Source of the DNA: Vulcanimicrobiota bacterium
GTDB taxonomy: Bacteria; Vulcanimicrobiota; Vulcanimicrobiia; Vulcanimicrobiales; Vulcanimicrobiaceae
Assembly (NCBI GenBank): GCA_963714015.1
Contig: OY970223.1
Location: 800,001 to 864,000 of the forward strand
Direction: 5' to 3'
DNA: 64,000 bases
Part shown: positions 23,578 to 41,892 of the stretch, one piece after another
How positions within the stretch are numbered: position 1 is the stretch's first letter
Layout of the letters: every line of letters starts with the position of its first letter
The notes under the pieces: model-generated
The model's database searches: none
What the model saw: only the letters and a program-made list of their open reading frames with translations
What the model was told of the DNA's origin: nothing
Made by a program: the position numbers and the translations under genes

Positions 23578-23661
23578 GCCCAGATGGCGGAATTGGTAGA
23601 CGCGCTGGTTTCAGGTATCAGTGGCCGCAAGGCCGTGGGGGTTCGAGTCCCTTTCTGGGCA
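23578..23661 (+). tRNA. tRNA-Leu (anticodon CAG); CCA not encoded
   Basis: GCCCAGA/TCTGGGC acceptor stem, TGGCGGAATTGGTAGACGC D-arm, CTGGT-TTCAGGT-ATCAG anticodon arm, long variable arm GGCC-GCAA-GGCC, GTTCGAGTC T-loop. Confidence 0.96.
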
Positions 23662-23750
23662 ATTTCGTCTCAGCTAAATCCAAAGTATAAAAATACTTTG
23701 GATCGAGCACAGACGAATCGCCGAATACTTTGGCTTTGCCATTTCTCGTC
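23662..23750. repeat. Left-end motif cluster: three ATACTTTGG copies (one inverted) in a long fold-back
   Basis: CCAAAGTAT 23680-23688, ATACTTTGG 23693-23701 and 23725-23733; palindrome ATCCAAAGTAT-AAAA-ATACTTTGGAT. Confidence 0.9.
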
Positions 23751-24276
23751 CCGGCCTGTGGGCATTGCCAAAAACGGCGCGCGCTCGTTTCAAGAAACCG
23801 CAACAAGGCCCCGATCACATAGATCGCGCCGCTTTTTGCCGGGCTGACTAGCGACGTCCGCCGCGACCAACGGCGCGTGTCACCCACATAGTCGTTTGCC
23901 GTCGAACGCGGGTGCGCGTGGCCGGTCGTCCTCAAAATAAACCGCGGAGGGTGTCCTTCAGTGCTCTACGAATCGCACGATTTCCATGATCGCGCCATCG
24001 GTCAGCGTCAGCATGGAAGCTGGCCCACCGAACCGCACCTCCGTGCAACCTTTTGAAACCGAACGGTGTTTAGCATTGGGTCCCGGCTCAGCAGCCGCGG
24101 ATGTCCCCGTCATCGGCTCTTCCGGTTACGGTCAGTCTAAGAATAGAAGAGCGCGAACGATGCTTGATTCTTGTCTGGCATTTAGTAGCGAGAGATAAGG
24201 CAAGAACAGACTTAGAGTAAGGCGCTTTTCCAGCTTGCCGCTGGACGAGCTATCTGAATATAAGGATGTGTTGCCA

Positions 24277-24372
24277 GTGCGTAAAACAGCATGGGCGCTA
24301 TTTATTGGCGTCGTAGCTGGCCTTATTGCTAACCTCGTGTCAGCAATTTGCGCCGCCTTTCTTGGGTTTTAA
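24277..24372 (+). CDS. 31-aa hydrophobic peptide, type I toxin-like (not in ORF track)
   Basis: TAAGGA RBS; (M)RKTAWALFIGVVAGLIANLVSAICAAFLGF; followed by hairpins. Confidence 0.5.
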   Translation: MRKTAWALFIGVVAGLIANLVSAICAAFLGF

Positions 24373-24397
24373 CGAAACCCCGCGCCCGTAAAGGGCC

Positions 24398-24424
24398 AAA
24401 GGGAGCAGCGCAAGCTGCTCCTTC
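24398..24424. terminator. Stem-loop between the convergent peptide and transposase genes
   Basis: GGAGCAGC-GCAA-GCTGCTCC perfect 8-bp stem with GNRA loop; T-tail weak. Confidence 0.55.
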
Positions 24425-24450
24425 GCTATTTCCCGCGACGTAGCCACGTG

Positions 24451-25987
24451 CTACGACGCGTATGGTAGGATGATTCGACGCAGTGACGTGATGTTGGTTC
24501 CGAGTGTGACGCTCACGGGCTCGCGCAGTTGGTACTCCCACGCTGCGATCCGGCGTGCGTTATGAGCAATGGCGATCCCGTACGCCTCGTTCGTCTGAGC
24601 AGTTCCGACGAGTTCCTGCGCCAAGAACGTGCAAAACAACTCTCGCGCCGTCTCCAGGCTCGTTGGGCCTTTCGCCGGATACTTTTGCGCGAGCCGTTTC
24701 ATTTCAGCTTTACGCGTGCGCGACTTGATGTGGCCGCTGACGCGCTGCTCAGACGAAAAGACGCCTTCCATGCGCTGACGATACCGGTGAAACGTTCGGT
24801 AGATCGCGGGATGTTCGCGGCGCAGAAACTCCATGAACGCCATCGTCTCGCGTCCGAACTCGGCATTATCGGGATTCACCTTCTCTTTGATCATGACCAT
24901 CAGCATGATGCCTAGATCTTGAAGCGCGCCGTAGTGCTCGTCATCCCAGTAGGCTTTGTCGCCTACAACGAGCTTCACGTTCGGATTCAGCGCACGTCGC
25001 ACCAGATCGGGCAGGTGCTTCACGTCGGCGGTTCCTTCCCCGAATTTCAACGTGCAGCTGAGCGAGTAGATCAACCCTGACATCAAGCCTGCGACCGTGT
25101 GGACCTTGACGAAGCCCTTGCGGTACTTGGTGCGCTTTTCGATGGCGTCTTCGCTGAAGAAGTATTTCTGGAGAATCCAGATGGCCGCTTTTGACGTTCC
25201 GAAGCCGGTGGCGTCGATCCCTAGGATGCGATCCATTCCGCGGCCCGGACGTGACGACGCTTTCAGCAGGCGTTTGAGGGTGTCGAGCACGAGCGGATCG
25301 CCATGAACTTCGAGAGGGTCTCGTCGCTCAATGCCTGCTGATTTTTGTATCCCTCCCGAATGCCTCCGAGCATGCGGTACCGAGGGTCTTTTTCGAGATC
25401 TTCCCTCAGCTTGTGCGCTTTGACGCCCTCACCGGCCTTGACGAGAAGCGCATAGACGAGCGCCGCCCACGGGATGCGCGGCTGTCCCCGCTTGGATCGA
25501 CGCGGTCGGGGATCGGTCAGCAGGCGGCACATGTCGTAGAGGTGGTCGCGGAGGCGCTGCGTGTCTTCTTGAGCCTGGTTGACCCGCGTGGTGAACCGGT
25601 CGCCATACGGGTGGACTACCTGGGGCAGCTCCAGCCGGCGGGCGAGGGCGTACGGGCCCGGAACCCGGCAGGTTGTTCTCCAGGCAGTAGTAGGCGGTGT
25701 GCCCGCACGCGCCGACCCGGTTTGTCCGGTAGACTGTGACACATGCCCGTGATGCGCTTCGTCTTGTGCTGGACCTTGTAGAGCGCTCTCCGTTCGCCGT
25801 CGGCATGTTTCGAGTAAAAAATCCACAGCGTCGGCGACACTTTTTCGATGTCAAAGCGGCGGGCGTAAGTCTCGGACGCCTCGTCGTCGGGCAACATCGC
25901 GGGCAACAGAATGACTGGCGCTGGCAGCCCGAATTCGATGAGCTGGCTGGCGACGTCGTTGATTTCCCGCTGCACCTTGCTCATCAT
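24451..25987 (-). CDS. SWIM-finger-fused DDE transposase (IS4/IS5-like DDE_Tnp_1), ~3 frameshifts
   Basis: Joined ORFs 25616-25987, 25429-25854, 25263-25826, 24451-25290; C...ACGH finger, NQAQ...G.PR; ILGIDATGF, VVGDKAY and HRYRQRMEGVFS catalytic D-D-E. Confidence 0.8.
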
Positions 25988-25990
25988 TTG

Positions 25991-26262
25991 CTAGCGGCTC
26001 TTTCGAAAGCCCTCCCGTGATCGTGCAAACGCCTGCCAAATGTCTTCGGCCTCAGCGTCGGTTTGCGCCAGCAGCCATGACGCTGGAATCAGGCGGGCAT
26101 CACCGATCTTCCGGGGATGATGCCGGCATAAACGTCTGCGTAGATCGTGCGTAGACCAAGTCCGGTAAGATTTGCCACTCCGCGCGGACGGTAGTACAAG
26201 CGTTCAATGGGGGTTGCTCGCTCACTCTTTTGTGTCGTTGTCCTGTTTTTTTGCGTTCGCAT
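25991..26262 (-). CDS. Excisionase-like HTH (HTH_17/MerR-like), one frameshift near 26110
   Basis: RLYYRPRGVANLTGLGLRTIYADVYAGIIP then RKIGDARLIPASWL in the shifted frame; stop 3 bp before transposase start. Confidence 0.75.
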
Positions 26263-26353
26263 TCGCGAGGTGATCTCCCGGTTGCACAGGCAAATAGGTG
26301 ATCGAAGAAGACTCGACTCGCACACGCCACATTGTGTCGATCCTTCTTAATCG

Positions 26354-26742
26354 CTAACGCCGCTTCCCGGAAGTCTCCGTCACCTCCGCCTCGGGTGCCT
26401 CGATGGCCGCTGGCTTAACTTCGCGGCTCGCCGCGCGCATTAAGGCGTCCGCTTCGCGTGCATTTTTTTCAGGCAGCGGCACGCATTCTATCGTTAGCCC
26501 GGCGTCAAAGCGCCTTGGATCTTTCAAGTGAGCATTTGGTGAAAAGCCGGATAGGTCAGTAGCAGCGTGCGCTTCGGTGCCTGCACGAGAGCGACAGAAT
26601 AGATTTCACTAATTGCGTTGTGCACGTCGCCCGCGGAAATCGTTTTCCCGGCCGTAAGGCCGGAAAGTCGCCTCGATGCTTGCGACGATGGTGGCATCCG
26701 ACGCAGCCGCGTCGAATTCTTGCGATTCGGAGTCAGTTTCAA
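26354..26742 (-). CDS. Hypothetical protein (frameshift near 26525)
   Basis: ORF 26524-26742 continues as LKDPRRFDAGLTIECVPLPEK...GKRR in another frame; co-oriented with xis. Confidence 0.35.
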
Positions 26743-27180
26743 GAACTGCGTGCTGAACTCTACGCTATGGATCTCCTGAGCCGTGGCCTCGCACGTGATT
26801 CTCGACGACCGTGGTCAGTAACGCGTGTTAGCCATTCAGACGACTCTGCGCACTTCGACGCGCGGCAATTCACAGACGACGGCCGTTGCGCCCGGCGACA
26901 AATCCAACGCGGCGGCAACGCCTTCCGGAGCGGACTCCGACCAGGCTTCGAACAAGGACAACGCGTTCAATACGACGCCGTCAGCGCCGTCCACCCTGAC
27001 CTCATAAAATGCCGAAGACTGCATGCTAGCGCCAAGGCTGGGTCTACTACTGCGGCGAGGGAGACGCCGGATCGCTCGAATCTTCGGGCATATCACCGAA
27101 TCGCACGGATAGGTCGCCATCGCGGTTCTGAAAGGCCCCCCATCTTCACGTGTCCATCGTCGAACATGATGTACGTATCT

Positions 27181-27549
27181 CTAAACCGGCAATTGTTCGC
27201 ATTCCAATGCAACTGCCAATCGGTTGTTCTTGCTCACCATCTTCGTCTGCGCATCGTACGAGAGCAGTACGGCGTCGCCATGCATCCGAACGATCCTCAA
27301 CGTATACGGCTGGCACGCGGAGTCGATCTCCCTTGCGGACGCACCTTCAGAATAGACCTTCAACGTATCGCCGTTTGCGAGCGTCAACGATCCGCACAGG
27401 TCTCCCGAGCCGCAATCCTTCACGGCGGTGGCGACGGAACCGTCCCGCATCTGAACATGCAACGGACTGTCCAGACTCGGATCGGCGGCTAATCCGACGG
27501 CAGCGCTCGTCAAGAGAAGGGCTAGACACATAACACCCGTCCTAAACAT
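27181..27549 (-). CDS. Small secreted Cys-containing protein
   Basis: GGAG RBS; signal peptide MFRTGVMCLALLLTSAAVGLAA; paired Cys. Confidence 0.6.
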   Translation of the reverse strand: MFRTGVMCLALLLTSAAVGLAADPSLDSPLHVQMRDGSVATAVKDCGSGDLCGSLTLANGDTLKVYSEGASAREIDSACQPYTLRIVRMHGDAVLLSYDAQTKMVSKNNRLAVALECEQLPV

Positions 27550-27824
27550 TAAATCTCCGCGTCAAGACAAACGAAAAATCGCCAGCATCCAAAGAAGGCG
27601 CCCGCGTCGAAATTCGCTTCAGCGGGCGAACTCCCTGGGGCATGTCCGCGGTAGTCGCCCATGGACGCCGTCCACATGGACCCGTTAACGGGTCAACCTC
27701 CAACATTCTACGCATTGCGGTTGCCCGCAGATTCCACGTTGATAGCGCGCAATGCGCTCCAGCATCCATACAGCGCAGGCAGCGCCTCTCGTACGTTCCC
27801 AACGTCCGAATCTTGTGACTACTC

Positions 27825-28730
27825 TCAACTATTTTCAGCGTCGCCGTTTTCCATTCCACTGACACGCAACCACTGCTGGTAGGCGCTCAAAACCGTCGAA
27901 GCAACATGTACCGCGGGACCGAACTTCGCGTGCAGACTCTTTTGTCGTTCGACGTCAATCGCATGGTGAGCGACATCGCTGTCGTCACGAAGCCGTCGCA
28001 AAGGTTCGATTTCATCTGCAAAATAACCATAGGAAATCCCGAAGTTGCGATAGCGCCTCTGATAATCCCGATCCACACTGGGATCGCCAATTATGACCGA
28101 AACGGCTTTCCAAAGATTCAGTATCATCGCCGACGCAAGCACGTCGAAATCTGGCGTACCAAACTTAGCGATAACGCCTTGGTTTGCAATCAACATCAAT
28201 GCGTGCCGGTAATATATCAGTGCCCTGTCTAGTCGCTCGTCCGTCGTTGCGGAAAGCAAAGCGGCTCGCGAAATCTTTTCGCAAAGCATGTGTGTGTCGT
28301 ATGTCGTGAATGAAGCCAGATCGCCGAATCTAGGCAGCGGGTACGCCTTGCCAGCGTCGTCGCGAAACGAAACCAGTTCGTACGAAATCTGCTGTTCCAG
28401 TTGAACGGACGCCGATTCCATAAGCCGGTTCAAAGAATTCGTGATCCTGAAAAGTGCTTCCGAGTGTGACGCAACTGGCAAATCACACACGACCATGATG
28501 TAGTTGTCGTTCAGCGTCATCCGGAATCCATCTAATACGAAAGACACGCGCACGGCGTCCTCGTCTTCGCGATACCGTGACATCGTGCCGTGCCCGACCT
28601 TTCGGAGCGTTGAAGTATCCAAGGCCGCTGAAACAATTTCTGCTTGACCAGACGGATAGACGGTCTTCGTCCCGTCTGGGACGCCGAAGATGCCCGGAGG
28701 AAATATCTCCGCATGGACGATGTACGTCAT
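27825..28730 (-). CDS. Hypothetical protein with C-terminal HEPN-like (MauJ/ApeA-like) domain
   Basis: Intact 301-aa ORF; RLDRALIYYRHAL...LNLWKAVSVI...LRRLRDDSDVAH (R-x6-H). Confidence 0.6.
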   Translation of the reverse strand: MTYIVHAEIFPPGIFGVPDGTKTVYPSGQAEIVSAALDTSTLRKVGHGTMSRYREDEDAVRVSFVLDGFRMTLNDNYIMVVCDLPVASHSEALFRITNSLNRLMESASVQLEQQISYELVSFRDDAGKAYPLPRFGDLASFTTYDTHMLCEKISRAALLSATTDERLDRALIYYRHALMLIANQGVIAKFGTPDFDVLASAMILNLWKAVSVIIGDPSVDRDYQRRYRNFGISYGYFADEIEPLRRLRDDSDVAHHAIDVERQKSLHAKFGPAVHVASTVLSAYQQWLRVSGMENGDAENS

Positions 28731-28764
28731 TCACGAGCCTTTCACTGATTGACGCCGCGCGGCT

Positions 28765-31700
28765 CTACGCGAAGACGTCGGCATACTGGCGCACACCCAT
28801 CTTCATCAACTCGTCATTGACGTGCAGAGCCGTTTTTTCCGCTTCGCCCCCAGCTGCGCGAGCATTTCGAAAGATTTCGCGTACACCGTCCTGATTCATG
28901 AACGGAAACGGCGTCTGCCTCTTCACCAGCAGATCCAGTGCCGTAACGGCCTCCCGCGGATGCGTCGCGCTCAAAGACTCCGAGTTTCTCAATGACTCTC
29001 CATTCCATGTTTACCTGCCCGGCGGTACTGTGCAAAACTGCTTGCAGCATGGACAAGGCCCACCTTGGATCGACGTTGTCGGAAATGAACCAAAGGCCGA
29101 AAATGGCAAGGATCTTCCGACGTTCCTCGAGCGTTCGATCTGAATAGAGTTCCAACATTCGCTCGAAGAGTACCTCGAACCGATGCATCGTTTCATCCGA
29201 CCAGTTTGGCGAATTCAAGGCGTTCCCGGCGCTCGTCATCATGTGCGACAATGCGGATGGCGGCGCGTCGTGCAAGAACGCTGCAAGCGGGCCTTGTTGC
29301 AGATCTAGTCGTCCCCATAGGTACGGACCCAAAAAGTGGGATCCGAGCGAACCGGCGGGATACCAGTCTGTCCGATCAACGTTCGGCTCCTCGCCGATGC
29401 TAAACGCATGGCGCTCGTAGCGCGAGCGCAGGACGTCAAACGTCTCTCCGTAGATGCGATTGAAGACAAGGTACGCTTCCCAGGATGCGCGTCCAGCATC
29501 GTCGTTCGTAAATATCCGATCGAGAGCACCTTTCGTCCACGTTCTCGACTCCGCATAGATGGATACGAAGTTCTGTCCATACGTGGAACGGATCGCGCGC
29601 GTGTGCTCGACCATGGGATCCAGCATACGGTCGAGGAGCGAAAACAGTTCGGGCGCGTGCGGACGCAGATCGAATTCGCCCTCATCCCCTTTCAGTGCTG
29701 CGTTGATCCAGCGCGCGTACTCGAACAACGCTAGCATTCCGGCCCCGCGCGCAGAGTTCAGCGCTAAACTCCAAGGGTCGCCGTGCGATTCGCGTCCGGA
29801 GTAGCGGTCATCCTGATCGGGCGTGGGATCGCGGTCCGCGATAATTGCTTCGATGATTTGGAAAACGCGGGCGCGCAATGCGTACGGTAGAGATTTACCG
29901 CGCATCATATCCGTAAGCGCGAACGCGATCGTCTGCCGCAACGGTCCCCAGGACGGTTCGTCGTCGTCCGCTTCGTCCAACGTCTCGTAGTTGCGCTCCG
30001 CTTCGGCTGCGTCCGCCTTGCACATCTCCATCAGCGAAACGTACGCGTCGTAATCGAAATCTGTGCCGGTGGCATGCGGCCGAATCGCTTCAACGACGTG
30101 ACGCACATAGATCGGCGGCGGACTCGCTGACACGCCGCCATTGCTCAAGAAATTCGCGCCGCCGTTCGACGACGAGCGGCTGCAGCGCGCGCCCGAGGCC
30201 TTCGGGTGACGGTGCTAACCAGCCGCCTTCGGGCGTCCAGGATTCCAGGTACGTCAGCACCTCCGCCGTGGACATTTCGCGCAATTCTTGCGCCGATTTC
30301 GGAGCCTCCGGCCCCAGCGATGTTTCGGCGTGCTGAGGCGATTGGTCGTATTCTTGCGCGAAGCGCATCTTCAAATCGTCGAATCGCGCTAGATCGTCCC
30401 CAGCGAGGTACGGCGCAATCGGCTTCATCTGCTCGTACGTCTGACGGGCCCTGAACCGCTCGACGGCGGCCTGTAGGTCTTGTTCCTCGACGCGACCACG
30501 CAGAAGTACAACCGCCCGTGCTTTCGTCGTTATACCGGCACGTAGGCCTGCAACGATCTTTTTGCGGTCCTCTTCCTCGAAATCCGGAAAGAACCGAGAC
30601 AGGAAATCTCTTCGCTCCTTCGTGTTTTGGCGATAGGAAAGCAGGTTGCCGCGCTCGGCCAATGCGGTCTTTGCGTTCTCTGCTTCTCCGACGGCAGTTA
30701 TGATCGCCAGCGAGATGCGTTTGAAGACGTCGTGCTCGAACCTGCGGAGCAGTGAAAGAACCTCGTCAACGGGAAACCGGCCTGCATTCACGGCCGCGCA
30801 CGAAGTAGAGTAGATTTTGAGGGAAAGGCGCTGCTTTACGCCGTGCGCCATATTGGCGTCTTCGCGGATCTCGGGAAGCCAGCTGGTGGAGTAATCCGTG
30901 ACCGGCTCCCCTTCGATTTCCAGTGCGTCCTTCAGCCGATACGCCAGCATTTCAACGAATTCCAACGGCTCCGCTTGGCCGAGGAACGTTCGATACTATC
31001 TAGCGCCGCGACGTATTGCATGTCGCCGATCTTCGCGGCGGCCCGACGGCGTTTTCGACCCATGAGTTCGAACTGGTCGTCAACCGTTATCAAATCCAGC
31101 ACCGATCGGGCGATCTTTCGGGCCGCGGCGTACTCTCCCGACGCCGTGAAATGCTTTATGACGTTCAAGTAGGCGTATTGGAGTCGGTCAGGATCCGCTT
31201 CGAACCATGCCCTGAGCGGCTTTACCAACGTCTTTCCTGTCGCGGCCGGCATGTTGTTCACCGCAGCGACCAGTTCGTACACTACAAGTGTATTGTCGGT
31301 CTTGATGTTGCGGATGACGTCCGCGACTTGGTCCGGTATTGCATGCGCGACGTTTACCAGATACTTGCCCTGCGGCCAACGCATGAAAACAATTCGATCG
31401 CCGCTCCGACGGGAAGTTGGAGGCGAATCGAACATGTGACATCTCTTGAGCAGATAGAAAGCCTTTGGATTTTTAAGGCGCTCGAAAAAATATAGCGCAT
31501 CCTCGGGATGTCCAAGCGCCTCAATGGATGCGCGAAGTTTTCCCTCGTTCACCACGATTCGATCTCCGCAAGGTTTTCATCCATGCGTGCCTGTCGTTCG
31601 TGCCGATGGCCAAGTATGGCGTGCAAGATGTCCTCGAACCGGTCCCATTCATCAAGCGCTTCCGATTCGTTGCGCAGCTTGTGACGTGTCGGCACATGCG

Positions 31701-32237
31701 CTAACTTCTCGCCCTCCAAGCGGACGAGTCCCCTCGCTACATGGGTCATCTCTTCGGGATAGACGCCGTGCAGAAGGCCTAAGACTTCCGACAAGGCCTC
31801 CACGCGCTCCCCTTCGACGTTCGACTCCTGCGTTATCCAACGGTTGAGCGGGACGCCAACTCGAACCGGATCGTCACGGAACTTTCCGCGCTGGGGCGTG
31901 ATTGCGCGTCCCCCAGCGCAAGATCCCCGACCGCGGCGCGCCACTGTGCAAAGACCTGTAGTCTTTCCTCACGCCGCAGACGATCATGATCTTCATCGCC
32001 CCCCGCTGGTTCCAGACCCTCATAGTGATCCCGCAAGCGGTTCACGATTTCGCGCATCGCGTGGCCGATGAGGTAGGCCCTCCCCGGAAAACCCTCGCAC
32101 TGGCGCAGAATCGCCCCAGACTCGAACACCGCCGCCATCTCGCCGAACAGCTGCAGTGCCTCGACTATGTCGCGTTCTCGCTTGTTGAGTAGCGCGCGGA
32201 GGATGGAGATAGTCCCACCCAAGGACTCGTCCGGCAT
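28765..32237 (-). CDS. Large (~1150 aa) alpha-helical putative defence protein, broken by several frameshifts
   Basis: Consecutive overlapping ORFs 31833-32285, 31549-31944, 30932-31555, 30090-30965, 28814-30148, 28765-28992; N-terminal GHAMREI..RL motif; FF..L..P...F..PP...WP...YL...A...P motif. Confidence 0.6.
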
Positions 32238-32637
32238 GCCGTCTGTTTTTGCACTAACCACCACGACGAATCTTGCTTCGCACAATGCCGTGCCATATGC
32301 CTCGCATCAGTTCATGTGTGGCGCACCGCTTTTGCTACTAGGAATTGGTCTAACGTCCGGTGTTCGGCGCGCTCAAAGCCGAGCGAGTGGCTCCAATCGA
32401 TGATTTTGTGAATGCCGGCCATGAAGGCAGCCGCCGGCCCCCAGGCGCTATATCGTGAATGGAACGAGCACCCTGGTGCCTTTCGTTGACGCGGCGGGTT
32501 CATCGACGCTACCATCGACGCCCTATGAGGATCCTGGATATTGGCCCCGAGAAGGCCCAACCAGCGGATTCGAATCCTGAGCAGGCGACGCACGCGCAGT
32601 GCCCTATTAAGAGTGGCAAGGAGACGCACATAAGGAT

Positions 32638-34492
32638 ATGAGCGTCGGACGTGCCATCGCGTCACAGAACTTCCCACCCCTGTTCGGGCCTTATCACCGG
32701 ACGGAGACTCTCGCTGCCCTGGCACTTCATGGACCGATGCCGGCACCGGCGCTGGAGCGCATTTTTTCGCTACAGACGTCCCGGAGTATACGTCGCGAAG
32801 GCCGAATCGCGCCAAGATGCTGGTCCCGGTTCGAGCCGCGAAAGGCCAACTCGGGGGCACCACGGTGATCGGAGATCAACCCCCGGCTTCCGGTGCGTTC
32901 GGAACTGGAAGACCTGCTCGGCGCGCTGCGCCGCCACCACGCTGTGCGGCCATGAGCAACCCGGTTCTTCCTATACAGATGGCGGCGTTTTTGGAGGGGC
33001 CACGCCCCCGAGGTAGATCTGGATTTCCTTTTTTGCAACGCGGGTCCGCACCCGGACGCTGGTGGTGCCGAGGGCGCTCGGTGGCGAGGAGACCACCGGA
33101 CGGCTACAGCGATCGGTTCTGAATTTTTTCTCCGGACGCGTCCGTGGAGCAGTCGTCGGATTCGTCGAGGATGGAATTCTGGAACTCGACGGGTAGACCG
33201 TGCGGTTCAACCAGCGCCTTACGTGGCTTAATGAGCTGTACGCGCTTTTGCACGCCTTGGGACATCTGATGGGCGACGTCGTCAGCCACGCACGCTCGGC
33301 GAATGACGAACGGCAGAACAATCCAGGACGATCCAGTGGTGAGCTATGGAACGCGCTTCCGCCTTTTCGGAAGCCGCGCAAACCAAGCGATGCTCGCATG
33401 CCTAGCCGCTTTCGGTCCCAAACGTTCAACGGCGCTTGCCGCCGTATCGGCGGTCAAAGATTCGACGGCGATCCATAGGCTTGTAAAAGCCGGCATCGTC
33501 TGCCGGGTACCGGGAGCCAAAGCCCGTGCCGGCGATTTCTATGCGCTCAACGCGGCACATCCGGTCTATTCGAAGCTCGAGCCGCTTTGCGCACCGACGC
33601 GATACTGGACGAAAGCCTTCCGTTTCGGCAACCGGGGTTGCTGTACGGACGGGCCGGACGGGTTCGAGGAGCGGCAGTCGTTTCCGCCACCCTATGAAAT
33701 CTTCGGAACCCAAAAGAAGGACGCCCGGGCCAACATTGTGGCCACTCTGGCGCACACCGAGCACGCCGAAGCCGATGCTGGCTCCCTTTCGCGCCTGCTC
33801 TCGGAGCACGAAAGCACCTCGATTTTGAAGGCGTTGAAACGGCTTGCGAAGCACGGCGCGCTCGCCAGACGGGAACTTCGTGGCCTCAATCTGTACCGCG
33901 TAAATCCGGATGAACGCGCCATGACGAACTGCTCGACCTGCTTTTTGCGATGGGTCGGGCATGGCCACGCGACTTCTCCGAGGGAGGCCAAGTCGAAGCG
34001 CGCCTGCATCCCCCTAGGCGGAACGCCATCGAACGCGCTCGCCGCACCGAGGCTGGTCGGCCCGCGGCAATGCCGGTTGCCGCGACATGAGCAAGTCTGC
34101 CCTGCCTCCCGTTCCGCATGGTGCGTAGACCGAACAGAGAGCAAAGAAGACTTGGAAACGCAGGTGTTGCGTCAACGAACGGCGCGCGGCCGCCATCGAG
34201 CCCAACTTTGCTCTCACCCACGGCGCGCGTGCTCTTCGCCCTGACCGACGTCCCCCGTCAAAGCGCTACGTTAATTGCGGAGGCGGGGTGTGATCCCCAT
34301 ATCGGTCACCGGAGTCTGCGCCGCCTCATTCTTCTCGGCCTTGCGAAGCGAACCGCTATAGGGCAAATCCGGCTCGCCGAGCCTTCGCCGAATTCCGGAA
34401 TTTTCAAGGTCACATTTTTGGGGTCACCCGTCGAGCCCGGCTCCGCCTCGTATCGGCGAGCGGGGAATCTCACGTGTCTGTCGGCTATTTGA
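32638..34492 (+). CDS. Tandem winged-helix repeat protein (~5 repeats), multiple frameshifts
   Basis: TAAGGA RBS; recurring units LFGPYHRTETLAALALHGP, LFATRVRTRTLV, LFGSRANQAMLACLAAFGP..YALNAAHP, IFGTQ..ARANIVATL..LYRVNP, LLSPTARVLFAL. Confidence 0.6.
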
Positions 34493-34660
34493 TCGACGGG
34501 GCCGGGCAGACGCCGCGTCATCTAGCCTGGTGCGGGCGCATCATCATCGCCGGCGAGAGCAGCGCGAAGGTGCCGATGGGATTGTGCTACTCTTGTTCAC
34601 CGGCAGCTCTGGGGGCCACCAGCGAACGACGCCGCGGCGTGAGCGCATCCAGTGAGACAT

Positions 34661-34811
34661 CGAATACTTTGGCTTCAAGCTGCTATACGGTAGAATACTT
34701 TGGATTCACGCAGTAAAAGCGTAATACTTTGGATTTAGCCATTTCGTCTAGCTTAACCCAAAGTATTTCGAGTAGGGTAAGAAGATCTCTCGCCGCAGAT
34801 ACTTTGGGTTA
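34661..34811. repeat. Right-end/junction cluster: five ATACTTTGG copies around the ATTTCGTCT core
   Basis: Direct copies at 34664, 34695, 34724 and 34799; inverted copy 34758-34766; core at 34741-34749. Confidence 0.9.
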
Positions 34812-35259
34812 GTGCACCGTCACGCTCGCCCAGACGACGTGCGGATGGAAAAGAGTCATGCGTAGGTCAACGTTGATCCTGTGGAGCGCTCCCGAGGGAG
34901 ACGCACTTTTCAAATATCGCAGGCGGTTTTCAGGTCTACCTTTTGCAAGTCGACGGCCGCGCCGAACATTTCGCACGCCTCGACCTAAATCGGAGGACGT
35001 TTACGCAAGATTCAGCCGGTATTTGAAGGACGAAGTATACCGATTGTTACGACGGTAGTTCAGCCGCAAACGGTTTGGCGACGGACGCCACAGTCTATCA
35101 GGACCTTGAGCGTGTTTTCGGACCTTCCGCTCGTAGACCGAGCAGAGCACGACGGCTCGGCCACATGACGCGGCCGTCCGTTAACGGCGAGCGTCGTCAG
35201 TAGCCGGTCCTCACATTCGCGTCGAAGAGGGGGGCGGTTCTTGGTCTGGCTTCCGCGCT

Positions 35260-35670
35260 ATGGGCTTGGTTCGCGAAATTGCAAAGGCAGCCCGGGACGC
35301 CCATTATATTGCAAGGCGCACGCGATATATCGATGTAGTCATTTATCGCCAAGGGCGTAACGATGCCGTCATTATAGAGGCAAAAAGCCTCGAGGAGGAC
35401 GACGCTGATCGAGCCAGATGTGCCATAGACCAGCTCCTACTTTACAGGTGCTTGCATGCCGAAATGTACGGTCAATCTGCTGGCCTTGTCGCAGCATTTA
35501 CGCGAAAACCTCGGTACAAGAGTTTTGATCTTACCGAGATTCTAGTGAAATGCGGCATTGGCGTTTTGTGGCGCGCAGACACTTCATTTAACGGGACTGA
35601 CTCGGCTCGACAATCCGTTTCATGGATTTTCGACCAACAACACGAAATAAACAGGCTCATTCAGGCGTGA
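35260..35670 (+). CDS. PD-(D/E)XK nuclease domain protein (probably 3' part of a longer gene starting ~34858)
   Basis: IDVV...IIEAKS...AIDQLLLY motif set. Confidence 0.7.
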   Translation: MGLVREIAKAARDAHYIARRTRYIDVVIYRQGRNDAVIIEAKSLEEDDADRARCAIDQLLLYRCLHAEMYGQSAGLVAAFTRKPRYKSFDLTEILVKCGIGVLWRADTSFNGTDSARQSVSWIFDQQHEINRLIQA

Positions 35671-36140
35671 TGCTGTTTAGTAGTGACGAAAAGGCTCCTT
35701 CGCCGTCAACTCTTGTGCTCTCGAGGACCGTCAGTACGACTCAGCGTACTGGGTAGCCGGTAAAGTGGTCCAACGATAGATGCAGAATCAAAAGGCTCGG
35801 GCTCAAGGAGACCACCATGCGCAGTTGCTAGCCGGTGCACTTCGCTGCTACCGCGCGCATGTGAACGTTGCGAGCGGTTGCGCTCTCTTACAGCGCGCAC
35901 GGTGTTCGCACAACGCCGAAGATTCCGTCATTGTCGCTTGATTGAATGGCACGTGCCGGTGGTTACAGCATCGACTTGTCCATCATCCCGCCGAACGCCG
36001 CGCGAATACAATTTACCCTTCAAAGTTCGCACGCAACCCCGTCGCCGCATCTGGAATGTTAAGCTCCGGCGCAAGAGCGCAGGTGCGTCCGCGAGTCCCT
36101 CGCCGTCATAAGAAAGCCTCCGGTTTGAGCGCCGCGTAGG

Positions 36141-38345
36141 CTAGGCGCATTTGTTCCATCTCGATGCGCACGCTGTCCGCATCGATATGGTCGTACGCCG
36201 CGCCCGCAGCGGCGGCAAGCGCCATCAAACATTGCTGTCGTCCGGGTCGATGTCGGCGCCGTTTTTGTGCGGCCCGAACAGCGCGATCGCTTCCAAGCGC
36301 TGGCGCAAAAACACCGGCATCGCGATAACGGGGCGCGCAGGACTGTCGGCCAAATCGCCGGCGTTCCAGCCGAGGTCGCTCAGGCGCAGCGTTTCCCGTT
36401 CGGATTCCAAGTGCAGCACGAGCGTGTCGTCCGCGGCAATCTCGCCGTTTGTCTCTTCATCCCAACCGAGCGCAAATTCGCGCACATATGCCCCCTTGCC
36501 GGCTCGCGATCCGAATCCGTCGACGTGATAAACGATCGCCAAGTTGGGCCGCATTTGCACCCGCTCACGCCCCTCTATCATCGCTCACGCCGGCGGCAGC
36601 ACGGGCACGTAAGGCGAAGGAAGCCGCAGCGCTTCGTCCTTGAGCCACAAAAGTGCGGCGGCGAGTTCCGCTGCAATGGTGCGCAATACGAACTGATCGT
36701 CCGGATCGTACCACTGACTGTGCGGGCGCGCGCCCACGTAAATGCCGCCGTGTACCCGGCCAACGACGGTGAGCGGCAGCAGTAGGCCATTTCGCGGCAG
36801 CAGCGTCTCGATGCCCCGCACGTCGACGGTGGCGTGCGTTCGGCGCAGCCGCATAAACGCAGGATCGTCTTGCGGCACCACTTCAGGTGCCCGTTCAAAC
36901 CCGTGTATCGCGTACGGAGTATAGACGCCTTCATCAAACCGGTAGATCGCGCAGGCACCTTTAAACGTGCGATAAATTTCACCGATTGCATGACGCGCGA
37001 GCGCATCGGGGTCATGGGCTTCCGAAAAATCTTCGACCATGGCGAGAAGCCTATCGTGAGCGGCTTTTTTCTCGCGATAGAGCGTGCGTTGAAGCCCGTT
37101 TTCAATGTGGCCGCCGATCCAGCGCATGGAGAGGCCGAGCAGAATCGGAATCGCGAAAGAGACGGCGATATTTCCGAACCGTCCGAGAAAGACGTGATCT
37201 AAAAACGATTCCGTAAGCGCAATGACGGCAACGATGACGCCGAGCAAGATCGCATACAGTGCGGCGCGGCTTACGAAAAAATCGAGGTCGTAGACGTTCT
37301 TGGTGAAAACGACGTACGCAACGGCAACGGGCATCACCATTATCGTGAGGCCAAGAGCGCCGTCGAAGGGCAAACTCAGATTCCACAAGCCGGTAACGAC
37401 CGCATCGACGGTCGGGCCGGAGAACGCAACAACCAATGACCAGAAAATGATGCGGACGGTCAAGGGTTGCCGCTGGCGTGGCTCGACCGACGCAAACCAA
37501 ACGGCGGCGAGAACGACGACGAACCCCAAGATGTATGCGATCGCCAGCGCGAACGCCAGCCCCGACTGCTGCGCATCGACATCGCCCACGAACATATAAC
37601 GGATCTCAAAGTAGCCGAAGACTGCAAGCAAGATCACGTTTGGCGCGTACAGCACCCGGAACGCCCACAGCGCAACCGGCGAAACTTGCACCGGCACGAA
37701 GCTCTCGGCAAACAAATAGAGCAGCACGAGCGACAGCGCAGTCGTCAGCACGGTTACGACCCACGACGCCACCGCGAGCGGTCCGATTGCAAAAAAGCCG
37801 TTGAACCCCCACATAAACGGCAGTCCTGAGATTGCAAGCGCCTCGAGAAAGAGCCCGCCGAGCAGCGAAGCGCGGTCCCGCCCACGCAGGAGCAACAATG
37901 CTCCGAAGATCGCCGAAAACACACTGAGCACGTCGCTCACAAGCGCAGACACACGATCGTTCCACGGCGCGCTCGTAGTGCGCCGAAGAATACGGACGAT
38001 CTTACCGTCGCGCTGATACGGAAGGCTAAACGTTTGCTCCGCGCCGACAGAGCCAAGCGTAACGTCGTCACCGCCGTTATAGCCCGAGACCGGCCCGCTA
38101 CCCCACAAATTAAAACGATAGCGTTCCAGCGGCGTCAACAATCGAAAATCCAGCACGTCTCCCGGGCGCAACCCGGCATCGCGTCCGGCTTTCGTCACGT
38201 GCGTCATCGTGAATACGGGCCAGGCTCCGCGAGACGACGATTCATATCGCACGATCGACCCTTGATTGAGGGTTCCAAAAATGCTCGCAACGACGAACAC
38301 GAGCGTCGCAACCGAGATGAGGGCCCCCACGACGGTACGGGTCAT
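36141..38345 (-). CDS. Membrane sensor-like protein: PDZ-like + multi-TM + two GAF-like domains (frameshifts near 36590 and 36230)
   Basis: AGLRPGDV, ~9 TMs, LLLPL.V.GRVHG.IYVG and IAMPVFLRQRLEAI.LFGPH GAF-type strands; no output domain seen. Confidence 0.65.
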
Positions 38346-38410
38346 GCTTGTCCGCTTCGACAAGCGTAGCAGAGAACCGCCTGGAAACGCGGCGTAATGC
38401 GCCCTTGAAT

Positions 38411-39445
38411 CTACACCCGGCCGTGCGCGGCGCAGGTCGCGAGGCTGCCGCCGAAGACGACGCCCAAGCCGCATTGCGAGCGAAACATCCGCCGGTTGTC
38501 GTGCGGAACGCCGCGTACGAAGGCGTAATCTTGATTGGTTCCACCCGGATGGCGGCGATGCATGTAGGCGATGAAGTTCTTGCCGCGGGCGAAGCGGTAC
38601 GGCCCTTGCGCTTCTCCGCCGCACGAACGGTCGAGATCGTCTTCGTTCGGATTGGTGTCGGCAGTACCGAGCAGATAGGTGACGTGCCGCTTGACGTACC
38701 GCGTTTCGAGCGTTGCCGCGGTGCCCCTGACGTAGGGCGGCGCGCCGGCGATGCCGTAGCGCCACTGGTTGAAGTCGGGGCAGTTGCGCTGCGGCACCGG
38801 ACGATCCTTGCTGAAATAAAAGTACGACGAAGGGTTGGCGATCACCAGGTGCACGGGGACGCTTCCCGCGGCCGGATCGAGCTGCGGCGCGTTGCCGACG
38901 ATGGCGTAGCGGTCGACGATCTGTCCTCCCGCGGAGTGTCCGGCGAGCACGATCTCGCGCATCTTCGGAAAATAGCGCTTGTCGGCAAGGCGCGCGATCA
39001 TCGCGTCAAACACCGCGTAGGTGCTGATCGGCGCGGGCGCGACGGCGGGCGAGCCTCCCGGCCATTTGGAATCCCAGTAGAGCGTGCGCGGTGAGACGTT
39101 ATGTCCCGCAAGATCTTCGCGTTCGACGAATTGCGGCGAGATGACGATCGTATTCGCGGCGTGCGCGTCGCGAGCGGCTTCCATCGCGGTGTCATAATAA
39201 TAATCGGCGTCGCGCAGCACACCGTGCACCATGATCAGCGCGCGCGTCGCGTTGCGATCGCCTTCGAGCCCCAAGTTGCCGTAATAGCGCGCGTATCCGC
39301 TGCCTTGCGGCGTGCGCACGAAAAACTGCCGCGGCGCCAGCACGCCCGAATTGTCGGGCTGCGGCGTTTCGGTCGCCATCGGCAGCGGCGCGGCCGCCAT
39401 GGCAAAAACGAGCGAAGGCAATGCGAGCAAGGCGAGCAGTTTCAC
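38411..39445 (-). CDS. Secreted alpha/beta hydrolase
   Basis: Signal peptide; MVHG oxyanion motif, LAGHSAGGQ nucleophile elbow, ANPSSY, V.GV.HD. Confidence 0.85.
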   Translation of the reverse strand: MKLLALLALPSLVFAMAAAPLPMATETPQPDNSGVLAPRQFFVRTPQGSGYARYYGNLGLEGDRNATRALIMVHGVLRDADYYYDTAMEAARDAHAANTIVISPQFVEREDLAGHNVSPRTLYWDSKWPGGSPAVAPAPISTYAVFDAMIARLADKRYFPKMREIVLAGHSAGGQIVDRYAIVGNAPQLDPAAGSVPVHLVIANPSSYFYFSKDRPVPQRNCPDFNQWRYGIAGAPPYVRGTAATLETRYVKRHVTYLLGTADTNPNEDDLDRSCGGEAQGPYRFARGKNFIAYMHRRHPGGTNQDYAFVRGVPHDNRRMFRSQCGLGVVFGGSLATCAAHGRV

Positions 39446-39499
39446 GATCGATGTCTTCGACCGGAGGGGCACCGCTCCCCGGAGAATGTCGCGCCATGG

Positions 39500-40169
39500 T
39501 CGTACGCACCGTCCTCACCTTGCTGTGCTGCCCGACGTCGTCCATCGCGCCCCAACACCAACCGTTTACGCAGATCGCCGTCGCTTCTCGCCATGATACG
39601 TATCTGCCAGTCGGGCCGCAAAAGCACTGCGCAAAGCAGTGTACGTTCCGGCGCGGATGCGGTATCATCGACGGCCGTGTCAAACCTCGAGTACACGCTG
39701 AAGGCGAAGCACAGGTGGCGCCTTCGACATCATCAGATCAATCCGCACGCGCTTCAACGGCGGCGCGTTCTGGATGCCGGAATTCCGTGCTCTGCTGGAT
39801 GTGCTCGCATCGTATATGCCCGAGGTCGTCGGCCACGCGGTCGAGCAGCGGGGACACAGAATCTCCAGCAAGCGGGGCACGTCGCATTCCGCCGGGCAGA
39901 AGTTCCGTCTATTCGGCAGCCGCGTGAACCAGGCGATTCTGGCGTACCTGGCGGCGAACGGACCTGGCGGCAAGACGCAGATCATGGCGGCGGCGAACTG
40001 CGACGTGCCGGCGATCCGCCCGCTCCTTGAAGGTGCTGCCGGGACGGTCTGCGTCATCCCGGCACGCTCTGGCAACCGCGGTGATCTGTACTCGCTGAAC
40101 GCCCCCCATCCGGTGTTCGCGGAAATCCGCGCGCTGCTCCGGACCGAGGCGATCCGCAAGCAGACCTAG
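39500..40169 (+). pseudogene. Remnant paralog of the tandem winged-helix protein
   Basis: WMPEFRALLDVLASYMPEVVGHA...FRLFGSRVNQAILAYLAANGP...GDLYSLNAPHPVF aligns by eye with 33200-33580; 5' boundary uncertain. Confidence 0.65.
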
Positions 40170-40231
40170 GCGCACCTTTTCGATCCATTGCGGTCAGCGC
40201 GCGAAAGCGACGGACGCGGGCGTCAACTGAA

Positions 40232-40283
40232 TAAACTTGAAATCATGCGACATCGAACAGCGGCGGACAATTAAACTTGAAAT
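40232..40283. repeat. 12-bp direct repeat TAAACTTGAAAT x2
   Basis: Copies at 40232-40243 and 40272-40283 in AT-rich DNA just after the wHTH remnant. Confidence 0.8.
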
Positions 40284-40471
40284 AGTAAGCGGCCTTTTGA
40301 AGGCGCAGCATCGGCTATATGCAGCTTAACTAATAATCAGCGCGATATGACGGGCCGTCCTACGTGACGGCCGCACGCTCGACTGCACTAAAGGGCCTGC
40401 TACTGCCTAGTAGCAGGTAGTGCTATAGTGCGCATGCATGACGTTGCTGTCTTAAGATTTGGAGTTTTCCT

Positions 40472-41509
40472 ATGAATTCTCGCGCTTCGCTTCGGTCGAT
40501 CTCGCGCCGTGACGTTCTGGCTTTCGGAGGCGCCGCCGCTGCCGGCACAGTGCTGGCTGCTTGCGGCTCGCACGGGGTCGCCTCCGGACCCTTGAGCGAG
40601 CCCGACGATGCGGACCGGTCCATAGCTGCAGGGCGCTTGTCGATGGCGGAGATAACCTCGAATTCGACTGCTCCGCCGCCGTGGGTGCGCAAAACGATCG
40701 AAGACGTCATTCAAGCGCAAGGCACCGCGTCGAATGGCGTTTTTGCGATTGAGGTCGACCGCAAAGATATTCCAAACGTGCACCTGCGCGGCGTTCCGAT
40801 TCTTCCTTCATTCGAAATAAACGGGACGCTAAATTTCCAAAGCGTCGACGGCGGAGGCGGCAACGTGTTCACGAATTCCGATCTTTGCCTAAAAGCGGAC
40901 GAAATTGACCCGTTCATTTCACAACTCATCGATCACGACATCATCTTTCAGGCGGAACATCAGCACTTCTACGACTTCGATCCGCTCGTGTGGTTCATTC
41001 ACTTCCGCGCGTATGGGGATGCGAAACAGGTGGCGAGCGGCGTTAAGGCGGCTTTGAACGTTACGTCCACGCCCTTCCCGCAGACGCTCCCGAAAAATCC
41101 GACGACGCCGCTGCCCGCCGAGGAGATCGGTGATATTTTAGGTGCGGCTCCAAGCGTGAGTTCAAACGGCGTGGTCAATTATTCGATTCCGCGCGCGAAT
41201 CCAATGAGGCTCGGAAAATTTCAGATCAACCCGTATCTGAACATTATGACGCCCGTCTCATTCGAGCCCTTGGATCGTAGCGGCAAGACGGCCGCGGCCG
41301 TGCCGGATTTCGGCATGGTTGCCGATGAAGTACAAAACGTCGTGCGCTTGATGCGCTCGCGCCGATGGGACATCGGTTGTCTCTATAATCAGGAGACAGA
41401 CGAACACCCGCAGCTCGATTTTTCGCATCAGTTCAAGACCGGCGACCCCATCGCGCTGGCGCACGAAATTCGAGACGGCTTGAATCTGATGGACATGCGG
41501 TTCATGTAA
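40472..41509 (+). CDS. DUF1259 (LppY/LpqO-like) Tat lipoprotein
   Basis: SRRDVL twin-Arg, LAAC lipobox; two internal repeats with AEHQHF...WFIHF and LYNQE...FSHQ. Confidence 0.78.
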   Translation: MNSRASLRSISRRDVLAFGGAAAAGTVLAACGSHGVASGPLSEPDDADRSIAAGRLSMAEITSNSTAPPPWVRKTIEDVIQAQGTASNGVFAIEVDRKDIPNVHLRGVPILPSFEINGTLNFQSVDGGGGNVFTNSDLCLKADEIDPFISQLIDHDIIFQAEHQHFYDFDPLVWFIHFRAYGDAKQVASGVKAALNVTSTPFPQTLPKNPTTPLPAEEIGDILGAAPSVSSNGVVNYSIPRANPMRLGKFQINPYLNIMTPVSFEPLDRSGKTAAAVPDFGMVADEVQNVVRLMRSRRWDIGCLYNQETDEHPQLDFSHQFKTGDPIALAHEIRDGLNLMDMRFM

Positions 41510-41892
41510 TGCATAAAATAAGTCTCGCTGCATTTTGCTTCACGATCTGTCTTGCAGGTTGCGGCGGCACCTCTTCGCCGGCACCGCGCGTGCCGCTGAC
41601 GCTTCGAGCTTCCGTGAACGGCGGCGCCGAAACCAATGTGACCCAACCAGCCGCCCTCAACTTGCCGAATATTGGGGAAGCCGGCATCGTTACGGCGTAC
41701 GAAGGCTCCGAACAAGTGTCGTTTTCGCTGACGCCCGCAGCGGCTTGCCTGAACGCCGTGACGATATCGCCGGCGGCTTCCTCGGCGCAACAGACCGTTA
41801 CCGCAACAGCTACGGGAGAATGCACGGCAAGTGCGGTGGCATCGGACGGTGAGACGGCAACTCTTTCCATTTTCTCCATGCCGCCCCCGTAA
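41509..41892 (+). CDS. Hypothetical lipoprotein
   Basis: LAGC lipobox; coupled to upstream stop. Confidence 0.6.
   Translation: MHKISLAAFCFTICLAGCGGTSSPAPRVPLTLRASVNGGAETNVTQPAALNLPNIGEAGIVTAYEGSEQVSFSLTPAAACLNAVTISPAASSAQQTVTATATGECTASAVASDGETATLSIFSMPPP

Follow-up and report, generated by a model that had tools for sequence, protein, structure and literature searches.

How an element of about 11 kb came to lie exactly at the 3' end of a transfer RNA (tRNA) gene without carrying an integrase is the question raised by a 64,000-nucleotide (nt) stretch of the genome of a Vulcanimicrobiota bacterium (assembly GCA_963714015.1, contig OY970223.1, positions 800,001 to 864,000). This stretch is called the window here, and coordinates refer to it unless another contig is named. 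A first account made from the letters of the window alone (the sequence-only reading) had proposed a cargo-carrying, tRNA-targeted, non-Tn7 DDE transposon. Our analysis indicates that the region from 23671/2 to 34740 is very probably a cargo-carrying DDE transposon of a rare, unnamed family found mainly in one bacterial family of the Vulcanimicrobiota. The anatomy of the element, its target duplications, its recurrence at the same position across genomes and the lack of any other recombinase were all directly observed and are described below.

The tRNA-Leu(CAG) gene (23578 to 23661, + strand; ARAGORN and Rfam RF00005, 49.5 bits) is intact, and its discriminator base, 23661, is the final base ahead of a 9-bp target-site duplication, ATTTCGTCT. 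The left copy of the duplication occupies positions 23662 to 23670 and the right copy positions 34741 to 34749, as had been claimed, and these are the only two occurrences in the 64-kb window. The pair is not significant by itself (at least two matches in 14 of 100 shuffles). The repeat starts after the discriminator, and the 3' end of the tRNA-Leu gene itself is not duplicated, also in agreement with the sequence-only reading. Each ATTTCGTCT copy adjoins one arm of a perfect 16-nt inverted repeat (23673 to 23688 and 34724 to 34739), which can be extended to 17 nt with 16 of 17 positions matching (AGCTAAATCCAAAGTAT at 23672 to 23688 versus the reverse complement of 34724 to 34740). On the left, the duplication and the terminal repeat are separated by a single extra C at 23671 that has no counterpart on the right side, and the 1-nt offset that had been pointed out is real. 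The element thus delimited spans 11.07 kb and is, as a whole, single copy in the 3.56-Mb genome. The Rfam scan of the window detected no family besides tRNA.

The strongest statistical signal in the window is the 9-mer ATACTTTGG, which occurs 8 times versus 0.10 expected, a number reached in none of 100 shuffles. All eight copies are confined to the two ends of the element, including two copies located just past the right duplication. The left, tRNA-proximal end (23672 to 23733) comprises the 17-nt terminal repeat at 23672 to 23688 and three ATACTTTGG sites: one inverted site inside the terminal repeat (23680, -) and two inward sites (23693 and 23725, both +), of which the inverted site and the first inward one form a palindrome around AAAA. 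The right end (34664 to 34740) contains three direct sites (34664, 34695, and 34724, all +) spaced by 31 and 29 nt, and the last of them lies inside the 17-nt terminal repeat, which ends ...TTTAGCC at 34740. The terminal inverted repeats that had been attributed to a DDE transposon are therefore present, but the ends are multi-site and asymmetric and are not simple inverted repeats. It was also observed that the bases preceding the duplication are alike at both junctions (23657 to 23661 versus 34736 to 34740), and the same holds for the junctions in genomes G258, G401, and G009: the sequence is ...GGGCA or ...GAGCA where the tRNA stops and ...TAGCC or ...GAGCC at the right terminus, with just 3 to 4 nt involved. 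Judged from these few bases, the transposon end might mimic its target, or the likeness might be due to chance.

Among the 20 open reading frames (ORFs) scanned between the repeats, the only recombinase domain identified was DDE_Tnp_1 (Pfam PF01609) at 24451 to 25290 (- strand; 36.3 bits, cut-off 23). It is part of a transposase pseudogene (24451 to 25987, - strand) that was delineated with Pfam, NCBIfam, and tblastn and is predicted to comprise a SWIM-like finger, a DUF772-like region, and the DDE_Tnp_1 core. By tblastn, the gene is colinear with an intact protein of genome G258 from 25984 to 24454 in four frame segments, and it contains three frameshifts (near 25730, 25660, and 25300), which could be either true decay or assembly errors. 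The neighboring host genes, encoding a major facilitator superfamily (MFS) transporter and an HtrA protease, are intact, and the breaks are thus concentrated in the element. No nearer ends of its own were found around the transposase gene. A small ORF just upstream of the transposase start (26089 to 26325, - strand) may resemble excisionase/AlpA-type helix-turn-helix (HTH) proteins, and Pfam gave no match for it even at an E value of 0.5.

In an alignment of 10 family sequences, D315, D426, E490, Y483, and R486 do not vary, and K497 is conserved to at least 90%. Compared with the DDE triad and the signature Y-(2)-R-(3)-E-(6)-K, the window copy retains D, D, E, and R and has H and Q in place of the conserved Y and K. 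Distant members of the family carry a canonical C-x-C-x(n)-C-x-H SWIM finger, followed by weak DUF772 matches. Two proteins exceeded the SWIM cut-off (PF04434, 19.6 bits), namely P0017 (20.4 bits) and the transposase of the G258:C28 locus (34.6 bits), and P0013 (16.6 bits) and P0009 (13 bits) stayed below it. The clade formed by the window and G258:C14 copies has no Pfam SWIM match, and its first residue pair is C-x-S where C-x-C is expected. Of the earlier claim that a SWIM-fused DDE transposase is the only recombinase, the second half held in the 20 ORFs, whereas the SWIM finger of the window copy is degenerate and the gene is frameshifted.

The proteins of the family are ~420 to 630 amino acids (aa) long, with an N-terminal part of ~300 aa that includes the SWIM finger. 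DDE_Tnp_1 scores were above the cut-off for the proteins of G258:C14 (47 bits) and G258:C28 (82 bits) and below it for the protein of G401 (20.1 bits). The assignment of the enzyme to the IS4 family had to be abandoned: judged by model scores, the family is nearest to IS5-type models and not to IS4 proper. The NCBIfam model transpos_IS5_2 (cut-off 140) gave 43.1 bits for the window copy, 122.2 bits for G258:C28, and 33.1 bits for G258:C14, and the IS1182 model gave 42.9 bits against a cut-off of 270; none of the family proteins scored reached a curated IS5, IS4, or IS1182 cut-off of NCBIfam. The AlphaFold model of the intact G258 protein had a mean predicted local distance difference test (pLDDT) score of 65, and its Foldseek matches were all RNase-H-fold DDE transposases and integrases, including that of Tn5 (1muh). 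A sequence search of the PDB with the family profile yielded nothing meaningful.

Members of the family are rare. When all of 1.84 billion representative proteins were searched with HMMER, 166 matched at E <= 0.001, 25 at E <= 1e-10, and 10 at E <= 1e-30, and the ten cluster representatives that were looked up were all metagenome singletons, either unnamed or annotated as 'hypothetical protein'. The family profile matched 52 of the 401 sampled genomes of the phylum at E <= 1e-10, and 50 of these 52 belong to the bacterial family of the window, for which 296 genomes were sampled. Just two of those 296 genomes, G258 and G401, have a copy at this tRNA-Leu. The genome counts include genomes flagged as unpublished (G021 and others), on which no positive claim depends. 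A word-index protein search with the 279-aa ORF scored no longer homologue, and a single-protein scan of genome contigs detected no relative; a narrower alignment search found only G258's own record in the genome contigs and L085, together with the weak match L086, in the metagenome contigs.

The flanks of 23 family loci were covered, and a left end could be defined in seven of them. Five of these seven left ends begin 8 to 11 nt after a tRNA discriminator, which is a tRNA-Leu(CAG) discriminator in the window, G258:C14, L085, and G401 and a tRNA-Met(CAT) discriminator in G262. In the tRNA-adjacent cases, the transposase-proximal left end faces the tRNA, and the orientation is thus fixed; the '< > >' layout of the left-end sites is common to the window, G258, L085, G401, and G262. 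The earlier claim of tRNA targeting was in this way supported at five loci and limited by the two defined left ends that lie elsewhere: only some members of the family target tRNAs.

The transposase has its two closest homologues in G258:C14 and L085. In both, the element adjoins the 3' end of tRNA-Leu(CAG), oriented as in the window and with near-identical ends, which is what the sequence-only reading had asked of homologues. The G258:C14 element (positions 522 to 27293, 26.8 kb) belongs to a different genus and lies in the same MFS-HtrA-tRNA-Leu(CAG) neighborhood as the window element. Its left junction reads discriminator, CCAACGGC(C), AGCTACATCCAAAGTAT, and two inward ATACTTTGG sites, and its right end consists of three direct sites ending ...GGATGGAGCC, followed by CCAACGGC(C), which makes the duplication 8 to 9 bp long. 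Beyond the right duplication there is a second left end, which agrees with the first over ~140 nt. The intact 613-aa transposase is aimed at the tRNA, with its stop codon 150 nt past the left-end sites, and is 40 to 56% identical per segment to that of the window, and the ends of the two elements are nearly the same (16/17 and 15/17). In the metagenome contig L085, 146 nt separate tRNA-Leu(CAG) from the end of a transposase 78% identical to that of G258; CCAAAGCAT forms the spacer, the left end and left junction are the same, and the right end lies beyond the contig.

A much more divergent element with different end motifs was found at the same tRNA-Leu position in G401 (C1, ~28035 to 60097; L089, L104; ~32 kb). 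Its transposase is only 22 to 29% identical to family members (tblastn), and its site motif, GACTAAnTGAAACT, is unlike the others, yet the layout is the same: tRNA-Leu discriminator, TAAGCGAAA(T), '< > >', ~32 kb, '> > >' ending ...GGAGCC, TAAGCGAAA(T), and the start of a host gene. The duplication is 9 to 10 bp, and ARAGORN sets the end of this tRNA-Leu gene one base beyond the position expected from its homology to the other genes. In G262, a distant relative, the sequence GGTCCAGAAAGT gcaa ACTTTCTGGACC ... after tRNA-Met(CAT) corresponds to one inverted site and, after a gap of 4 nt, two inward sites, and the family transposase converges on the tRNA from 1.9 kb. No other cluster of the G262 site motif, and hence no right end, was found in that genome. 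The G258:C28 element (L098, ~6700 to 14660, ~7.9 kb) occupies a non-tRNA site and has a clean 9-bp duplication, CTCGCTTCG, a 15-nt terminal repeat (14/15), '>>>' and '>><' ends, and a 418-aa SWIM and DDE_Tnp_1 transposase.

The four complete elements (window, G258:C14, G258:C28, and G401) have the same asymmetric multi-site ends, and in each of them the SWIM/DDE_Tnp_1-family gene is the only recombinase. Among the ORFs of these elements that were searched with Pfam (20 in the window, 31 in G258:C14, and 34 in G258:C28 and G401), there was no tyrosine, serine, or HUH recombinase, no Tn7 gene (TnsB/C/TniQ), and no second transposase. The non-Tn7 nature of the window element was thereby upheld, and no integrase using the repeat as an att core was seen in the relatives, in which, moreover, the repeats differ from genome to genome.

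The duplications are 8 to 10 bp long and, in the tRNA-Leu cases, start at the first base after the discriminator. The 9-mers are unrelated between genomes, identical within each genome, and equal to the local tRNA trailer, which argues for a target origin of the repeat and against an att core borne by the element. Repeats that are identical within and unrelated between genomes also indicate that the insertions are younger than the split of their hosts, and there would consequently have been at least three independent hits on the same nucleotide position, besides the tandem second copies found in the window and in G258. This duplication pattern fits independent DDE transposition into one position.

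Several observations weigh against this interpretation. Two of the seven loci with a defined left end (G258:C28 and G275:C31) are not at tRNAs, and in G275:C31 the left end lies just after the stop codon of a protein gene. A generic k-mer scan for clusters of end sites defined no ends in the other 16 of the 23 loci, in which tRNAs occur within 10 kb without such an end. Every tRNA-adjacent case belongs to a single bacterial family, and four involve the orthologous tRNA gene, so that the cases are only partly independent. The boundary of the duplication is ambiguous by 1 nt in three of the four complete elements, including the extra C at 23671 in the window. The inner two sites of the left end are opposed to the terminal site, which is unusual for DDE ends and resembles the core and arm sites of site-specific recombinases. 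The window copy appears to be a decayed fossil, inactive or nearly so: it is single copy, has three frameshifts, and has lost two signature residues and, for these reasons, shows no sign of recent activity. Finally, the empty tRNA-Leu site that had been expected in relatives could not be aligned. The same-genus genomes G001 and G002 have the tRNA and lack both the element and the transposase, and blastn and tblastx searches of 34750 to 40000 against the regions downstream of tRNA-Leu in these two genomes gave nothing. In G001, the next syntenic gene (the counterpart of window 47730 to 49040) follows ~2.2 kb after the tRNA.

Besides the transposase gene, a second gene is associated with the family. 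The window element contains at 32611 to 34241 (+ strand) a frameshifted homologue of a 478-aa protein of G258, P0151, recognized by tblastn in three frame segments (38 to 54% identity) and by profile matches of 4.4e-24 and 4.3e-10. The transposase and this P0151-type gene are the only genes found to be common to the window element and G258:C14. A profile built from five homologues of this companion matches within the flanks of 10 of the 23 family loci, often divergently adjacent to the transposase, and the companion is missing from members with short transposases such as G258:C28. The AlphaFold model of P0151 (mean pLDDT, 70) contains four helix-helix-helix-wing units, and its Foldseek hits were tandem winged-helix proteins and single ArsR/MarR-type domains (best single domain, root mean square deviation of 2.2 Å over 82 columns). 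The presence of TFIIIC and Pol III subunits among the hits appears to reflect the tandem-winged-helix fold only and is uninformative on the binding of tRNA genes. From the model, we take the companion to be a putative DNA-binding accessory, acting as a regulator, an end organizer, or a target selector. A simple role as a tRNA selector is disfavored because L094, L095, and L100 have the companion and are nevertheless far from any tRNA. For transposase residues 60 to 613 together with winged-helix residues 10 to 450, a complex prediction run without controls scored 0.00 (mark, 0.32). Elsewhere in the genome of the window, an intact companion homologue of 512 aa was also noticed (G000:C1:2850620-2851990; L105:848-2386, - strand), with no family transposase in the 3 kb examined around it.

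Catalysis by this transposase, cut-and-paste movement, and the route by which the tRNA gene is recognized are what we infer from these data, and they could be combined as follows. The transposase, in which a SWIM zinc finger and a DUF772-like DNA-binding region are combined with an IS5-type DDE_Tnp_1 core bearing Y-R-E-K, would bind 9- to 12-bp sites, three per end (three direct sites on the right; one inverted terminal and two inward sites on the left). It would then excise the element and join its 3' ends to the target with a 9-bp stagger, as IS903-type enzymes do. In the tRNA-adjacent clade the target would be fixed, with the staggered cut running from the first nucleotide after the discriminator and the left end pointing toward the tRNA. 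Because such a cut starts after the discriminator, the tRNA and the first nine trailer nucleotides would survive every insertion, which would make the site a safe harbor, and repeated hits at this site would build tandem arrays. The target could be read by the N-terminal part of ~300 aa that includes the SWIM finger or by the companion four-winged-helix protein, or the enzyme could be positioned by a feature of the tRNA end.

A wider proposal, which we advance tentatively and regard as somewhat doubtful, is that this minimal system evolved Tn7-style safe-harbor targeting independently. One IS5-type SWIM-DDE transposase, possibly with one four-winged-helix protein, would read the tRNA gene as DNA and place tens of kilobases of cargo exactly between the discriminator and the trailer in one orientation, and individual clades would have been re-aimed at Leu-CAG, Met, or other sites. 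Should the selector prove to be a domain or protein that can be separated, the system would be a compact, CRISPR-free, and naturally retargetable means of inserting large cargo.

The same insertions could in principle be made by a DDE transposon that senses a structural or functional feature of tRNA 3' ends (termination, an R-loop, or a bound processing or polymerase factor), or a sequence like its own right terminus, and not the sequence of the tRNA gene. We consider this unlikely: the insertion is nucleotide-exact and orientation-specific, and from the whole set of tRNAs the same tRNA-Leu(CAG) gene is used in four of the five tRNA cases, although elements with differing end motifs (G401 versus the window and G258) share one position and the G262 relative uses tRNA-Met. 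The likeness of the bases ahead of the two duplication copies (...RGCA for the tRNA and ...RGCC for the right terminus in the window, G258, G401, and G009) would also accommodate such sensing, but it spans just 3 to 4 nt.

It is very unlikely that the element is instead an integrative island moved by an unrecognized site-specific recombinase, with the 9-mer as crossover core, the 16-nt sites as core sites, the extra ATACTTTGG copies as arm sites, and the DDE gene as a passenger. The window and G258 have near-identical ends with wholly different 9-mers, each matching only its local tRNA trailer, and the non-tRNA member G258:C28 has a typical 9-bp duplication and terminal repeats. Such an island would explain why the inner left sites are the 'wrong' way round for a transposon end and why the right end joined to the left end gives a perfect palindrome around a 12-nt spacer. 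Many ORFs of the element also have no recognizable family and could accommodate an undetected enzyme; however, the four complete elements contain no tyrosine, serine, or HUH recombinase domain, the transposase and the winged-helix protein are the only genes found in common between elements, and the model of the latter contains DNA-binding folds only.

A single ancient insertion beside tRNA-Leu, inherited vertically by several genera and lost elsewhere without any targeting, is highly improbable even though all four tRNA-Leu cases have the MFS/HtrA/tRNA-Leu neighborhood in one bacterial family and the transposases (~40 to 56% per segment) are not closer than the neighboring host proteins (HtrA, 64%; MFS, 59%), since the duplications would then have diverged within genomes too, yet are identical within and share nothing between them, the sizes (11, 26.8, and 32 kb) and cargo differ completely, the G401 end-site motif differs from those of the others, the tandem second copies represent repeated hits, the distant relative in G262 is at a different tRNA, and any family member at all occurs in only 50 of the 296 sampled family genomes, with only G258 and G401 at this tRNA.

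Taken as a targeted DDE transposon, the element is by descent closest to the IS5/IS903-type insertion sequences (IS) and functionally closest to the Tn7-like elements that home to tRNA genes. With the IS903 group of the IS5 family it shares the DDE_Tnp_1 core with Y-R-E-K, the terminal inverted repeats, and the 9-bp duplication. IS903 is a ~1-kb element that makes a 9-bp target duplication and has low target specificity. The elements described here are not compact ~1-kb, single-ORF IS with simple terminal repeats but are 7.9 to 32 kb long, with an N-terminal SWIM finger, asymmetric ends of three sites each, and 6 to 30 kb of cargo, and in one clade insertion is confined to one defined position behind a tRNA.

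Tn7-like transposons depend on TnsA/TnsB (rve-type DDE), the TnsC ATPase, and a TniQ/TnsD selector, and their duplications measure 5 bp. Pfam detected none of these proteins in the four complete elements, which have an IS5-type enzyme and a 9-bp duplication directly at the tRNA end. The resemblance to the tRNA-homing Tn7-like transposons (the CRISPR-associated transposon [CAST] types I-D [CyCAST], I-B2, and V-K) lies in the cargo, the use of a DDE enzyme, the multi-site asymmetric ends, and an insertion that has a single orientation and lies a set distance downstream of a tRNA gene, which serves as a safe harbor. CyCAST homes to a tRNA-Leu gene via TnsD and inserts 30 to 33 nt past the end of the gene (PMC10293859), and the cargo of Tn7-like elements is described as rich in defense genes (PMC8649781). 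Eukaryotic Dada DDE transposons are reported to have strict specificity for small RNA genes, including tRNA-Leu, a transposase related to MuDR/hAT/P/IS256, duplications of 6 to 7 bp, and named insertions located inside the RNA genes (Kojima & Jurka 2013, PMC3706591); the present family differs in its PF01609-type enzyme, 9-bp duplication, position behind the gene, and bacterial host. Members of the IS1202 family are reported to target dif/pdif sites with a single transposase, in fixed orientation and a few base pairs from a conserved site (PMC10132070), and they differ in transposase family, in having XerC/D sites as target, and in being 1.5 kb long without cargo.

With the tRNA islands of tyrosine and serine integrases, the elements share the tRNA 3' end, direct repeats, defense-type cargo, and tandem arrays; unlike such islands, they have no integrase that we could find, the repeat excludes the tRNA 3' end and is unconserved in sequence, and terminal inverted repeats are present. 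No description of a bacterial IS4/IS5-type, SWIM-bearing, or single-transposase element aimed at tRNA 3' ends was found, with a literature coverage that was incomplete and did not include ISfinder. To our knowledge, exact targeting by bacterial DDE transposons has been tied mainly to the multiprotein Tn7 family and to a few IS that recognize recombination sites or repeats. What is new here is the tRNA-end-specific clade with its long transposases and winged-helix partner, in a family that is unannotated and rare. A transposase of the IS5 type that has an additional zinc finger appears to put 8- to 32-kb cargo elements at one nucleotide position behind a tRNA gene and to leave the tRNA undamaged. 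This would mean that some 'tRNA islands without an integrase' are transposons, would add a route for the movement of defense genes in a little-studied soil phylum, and would offer a small system for dissecting, and perhaps re-aiming, target recognition by a simple transposase.

As predicted from domain matches, the cargo of the complete elements is largely made up of defense or DNA modification genes. In the window element, a 301-aa ORF (27825 to 28730, - strand) had no Pfam, PHROG, or NCBIfam match and a weak PADLOC match to PglW (E value, 0.0024). Three consecutive ORFs of 207, 291, and 444 aa (28814 to 31555, - strand) gave weak colinear matches to the C-terminal part of Dsr1: with PADLOC, the 291-aa ORF matched profile positions 722 to 788 (E value, 0.0061) and the 444-aa ORF positions 900 to 1012 (E value, 5.8e-5), and the NCBIfam Dsr1 match had an E value of 0.002, all of these Dsr1 matches being under any cut-off. 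These ORFs look like fragments of one large Dsr1-like defense gene broken by frameshifts. The G258:C14 element carries genes for a C5 methyltransferase, an RNase_H_2-family protein, and a subtilase, and the G258:C28 element carries genes for an N6 methylase of the type I/IIG kind with HSDR_N and Eco57I-type domains, a DUF488 protein, and a 465-aa protein. The G401 element encodes a DpnII/MboI-type endonuclease, a 5-hydroxymethyldeoxyuridine (5-hmdU) DNA kinase, MazG_C, a 1327-aa protein, and a T5orf172/MUG113 protein; the kinase and MazG_C genes are typical of thymidine hypermodification. An IrrE/ImmA-type M78 peptidase gene was located 0.5 to 3 kb inside the right end in G258 (L082:974-1987) and in G401 (L104:11049-12388), where it is paired with an Xre-type HTH gene, and no counterpart was detected in the window copy. 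By analogy with other mobile elements, the peptidase could be a stress-responsive switch.

Beyond the right duplication, the window contains the left-end remnant of a second, older tandem element (34750 to 34815). It consists of the terminal repeat AGCTTAACCCAAAGTAT (34750 to 34766) and an inward site at 34799, and the two ATACTTTGG copies past the duplication, at 34758 (-) and 34799 (+), are part of it. No right end of this second element was found within 3 mismatches. The same tandem arrangement is present in G258 at the same tRNA site. The region from 34750 to 47700, up to the first gene syntenic with same-genus genomes (an ArsP-type permease gene, 47730 to 49040), is lineage specific, and a second fragment of the winged-helix companion, 44% identical to P0151, was identified at 39702 to 40241. 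The region from 34750 to 47700 is probably the decayed body of the older tandem element minus its transposase and right end. In G258, a further right end with three direct sites was noted at a contig end (G258:C32:140682-140750; L083), flanked by CCAACGCAA, which shares six of nine bases with the G258:C14 duplication; the second tandem element of that genome, whose right end is missing, may terminate here.

In other genera (L047 of G009, L052 of G033, L048 of G007, L049 of G022, L050 of G015, and L023 of G025), palindromes of the form xxCCAAAxx / xxTTTGGxx occur a few bases after tRNA-Leu. None of the five genomes G007, G009, G015, G022, and G025 had a family transposase at E <= 1e-8 or a homologue of it in the 20-kb downstream regions, and the profile and tblastn searches showed no family transposase in G033. 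These palindromes are possibly solo ends or nonautonomous relics. That the palindrome after the tRNA is a native terminator was considered and dropped; the right host flank of the G401 element enters the start of a gene without such a hairpin. In G009, an 11-nt direct repeat is found right after the tRNA and again 1.6 kb on, behind a terminus ending ...TATGGAGCC, and in G033, a 12-nt repeat occurs in two positions 4.5 kb apart.

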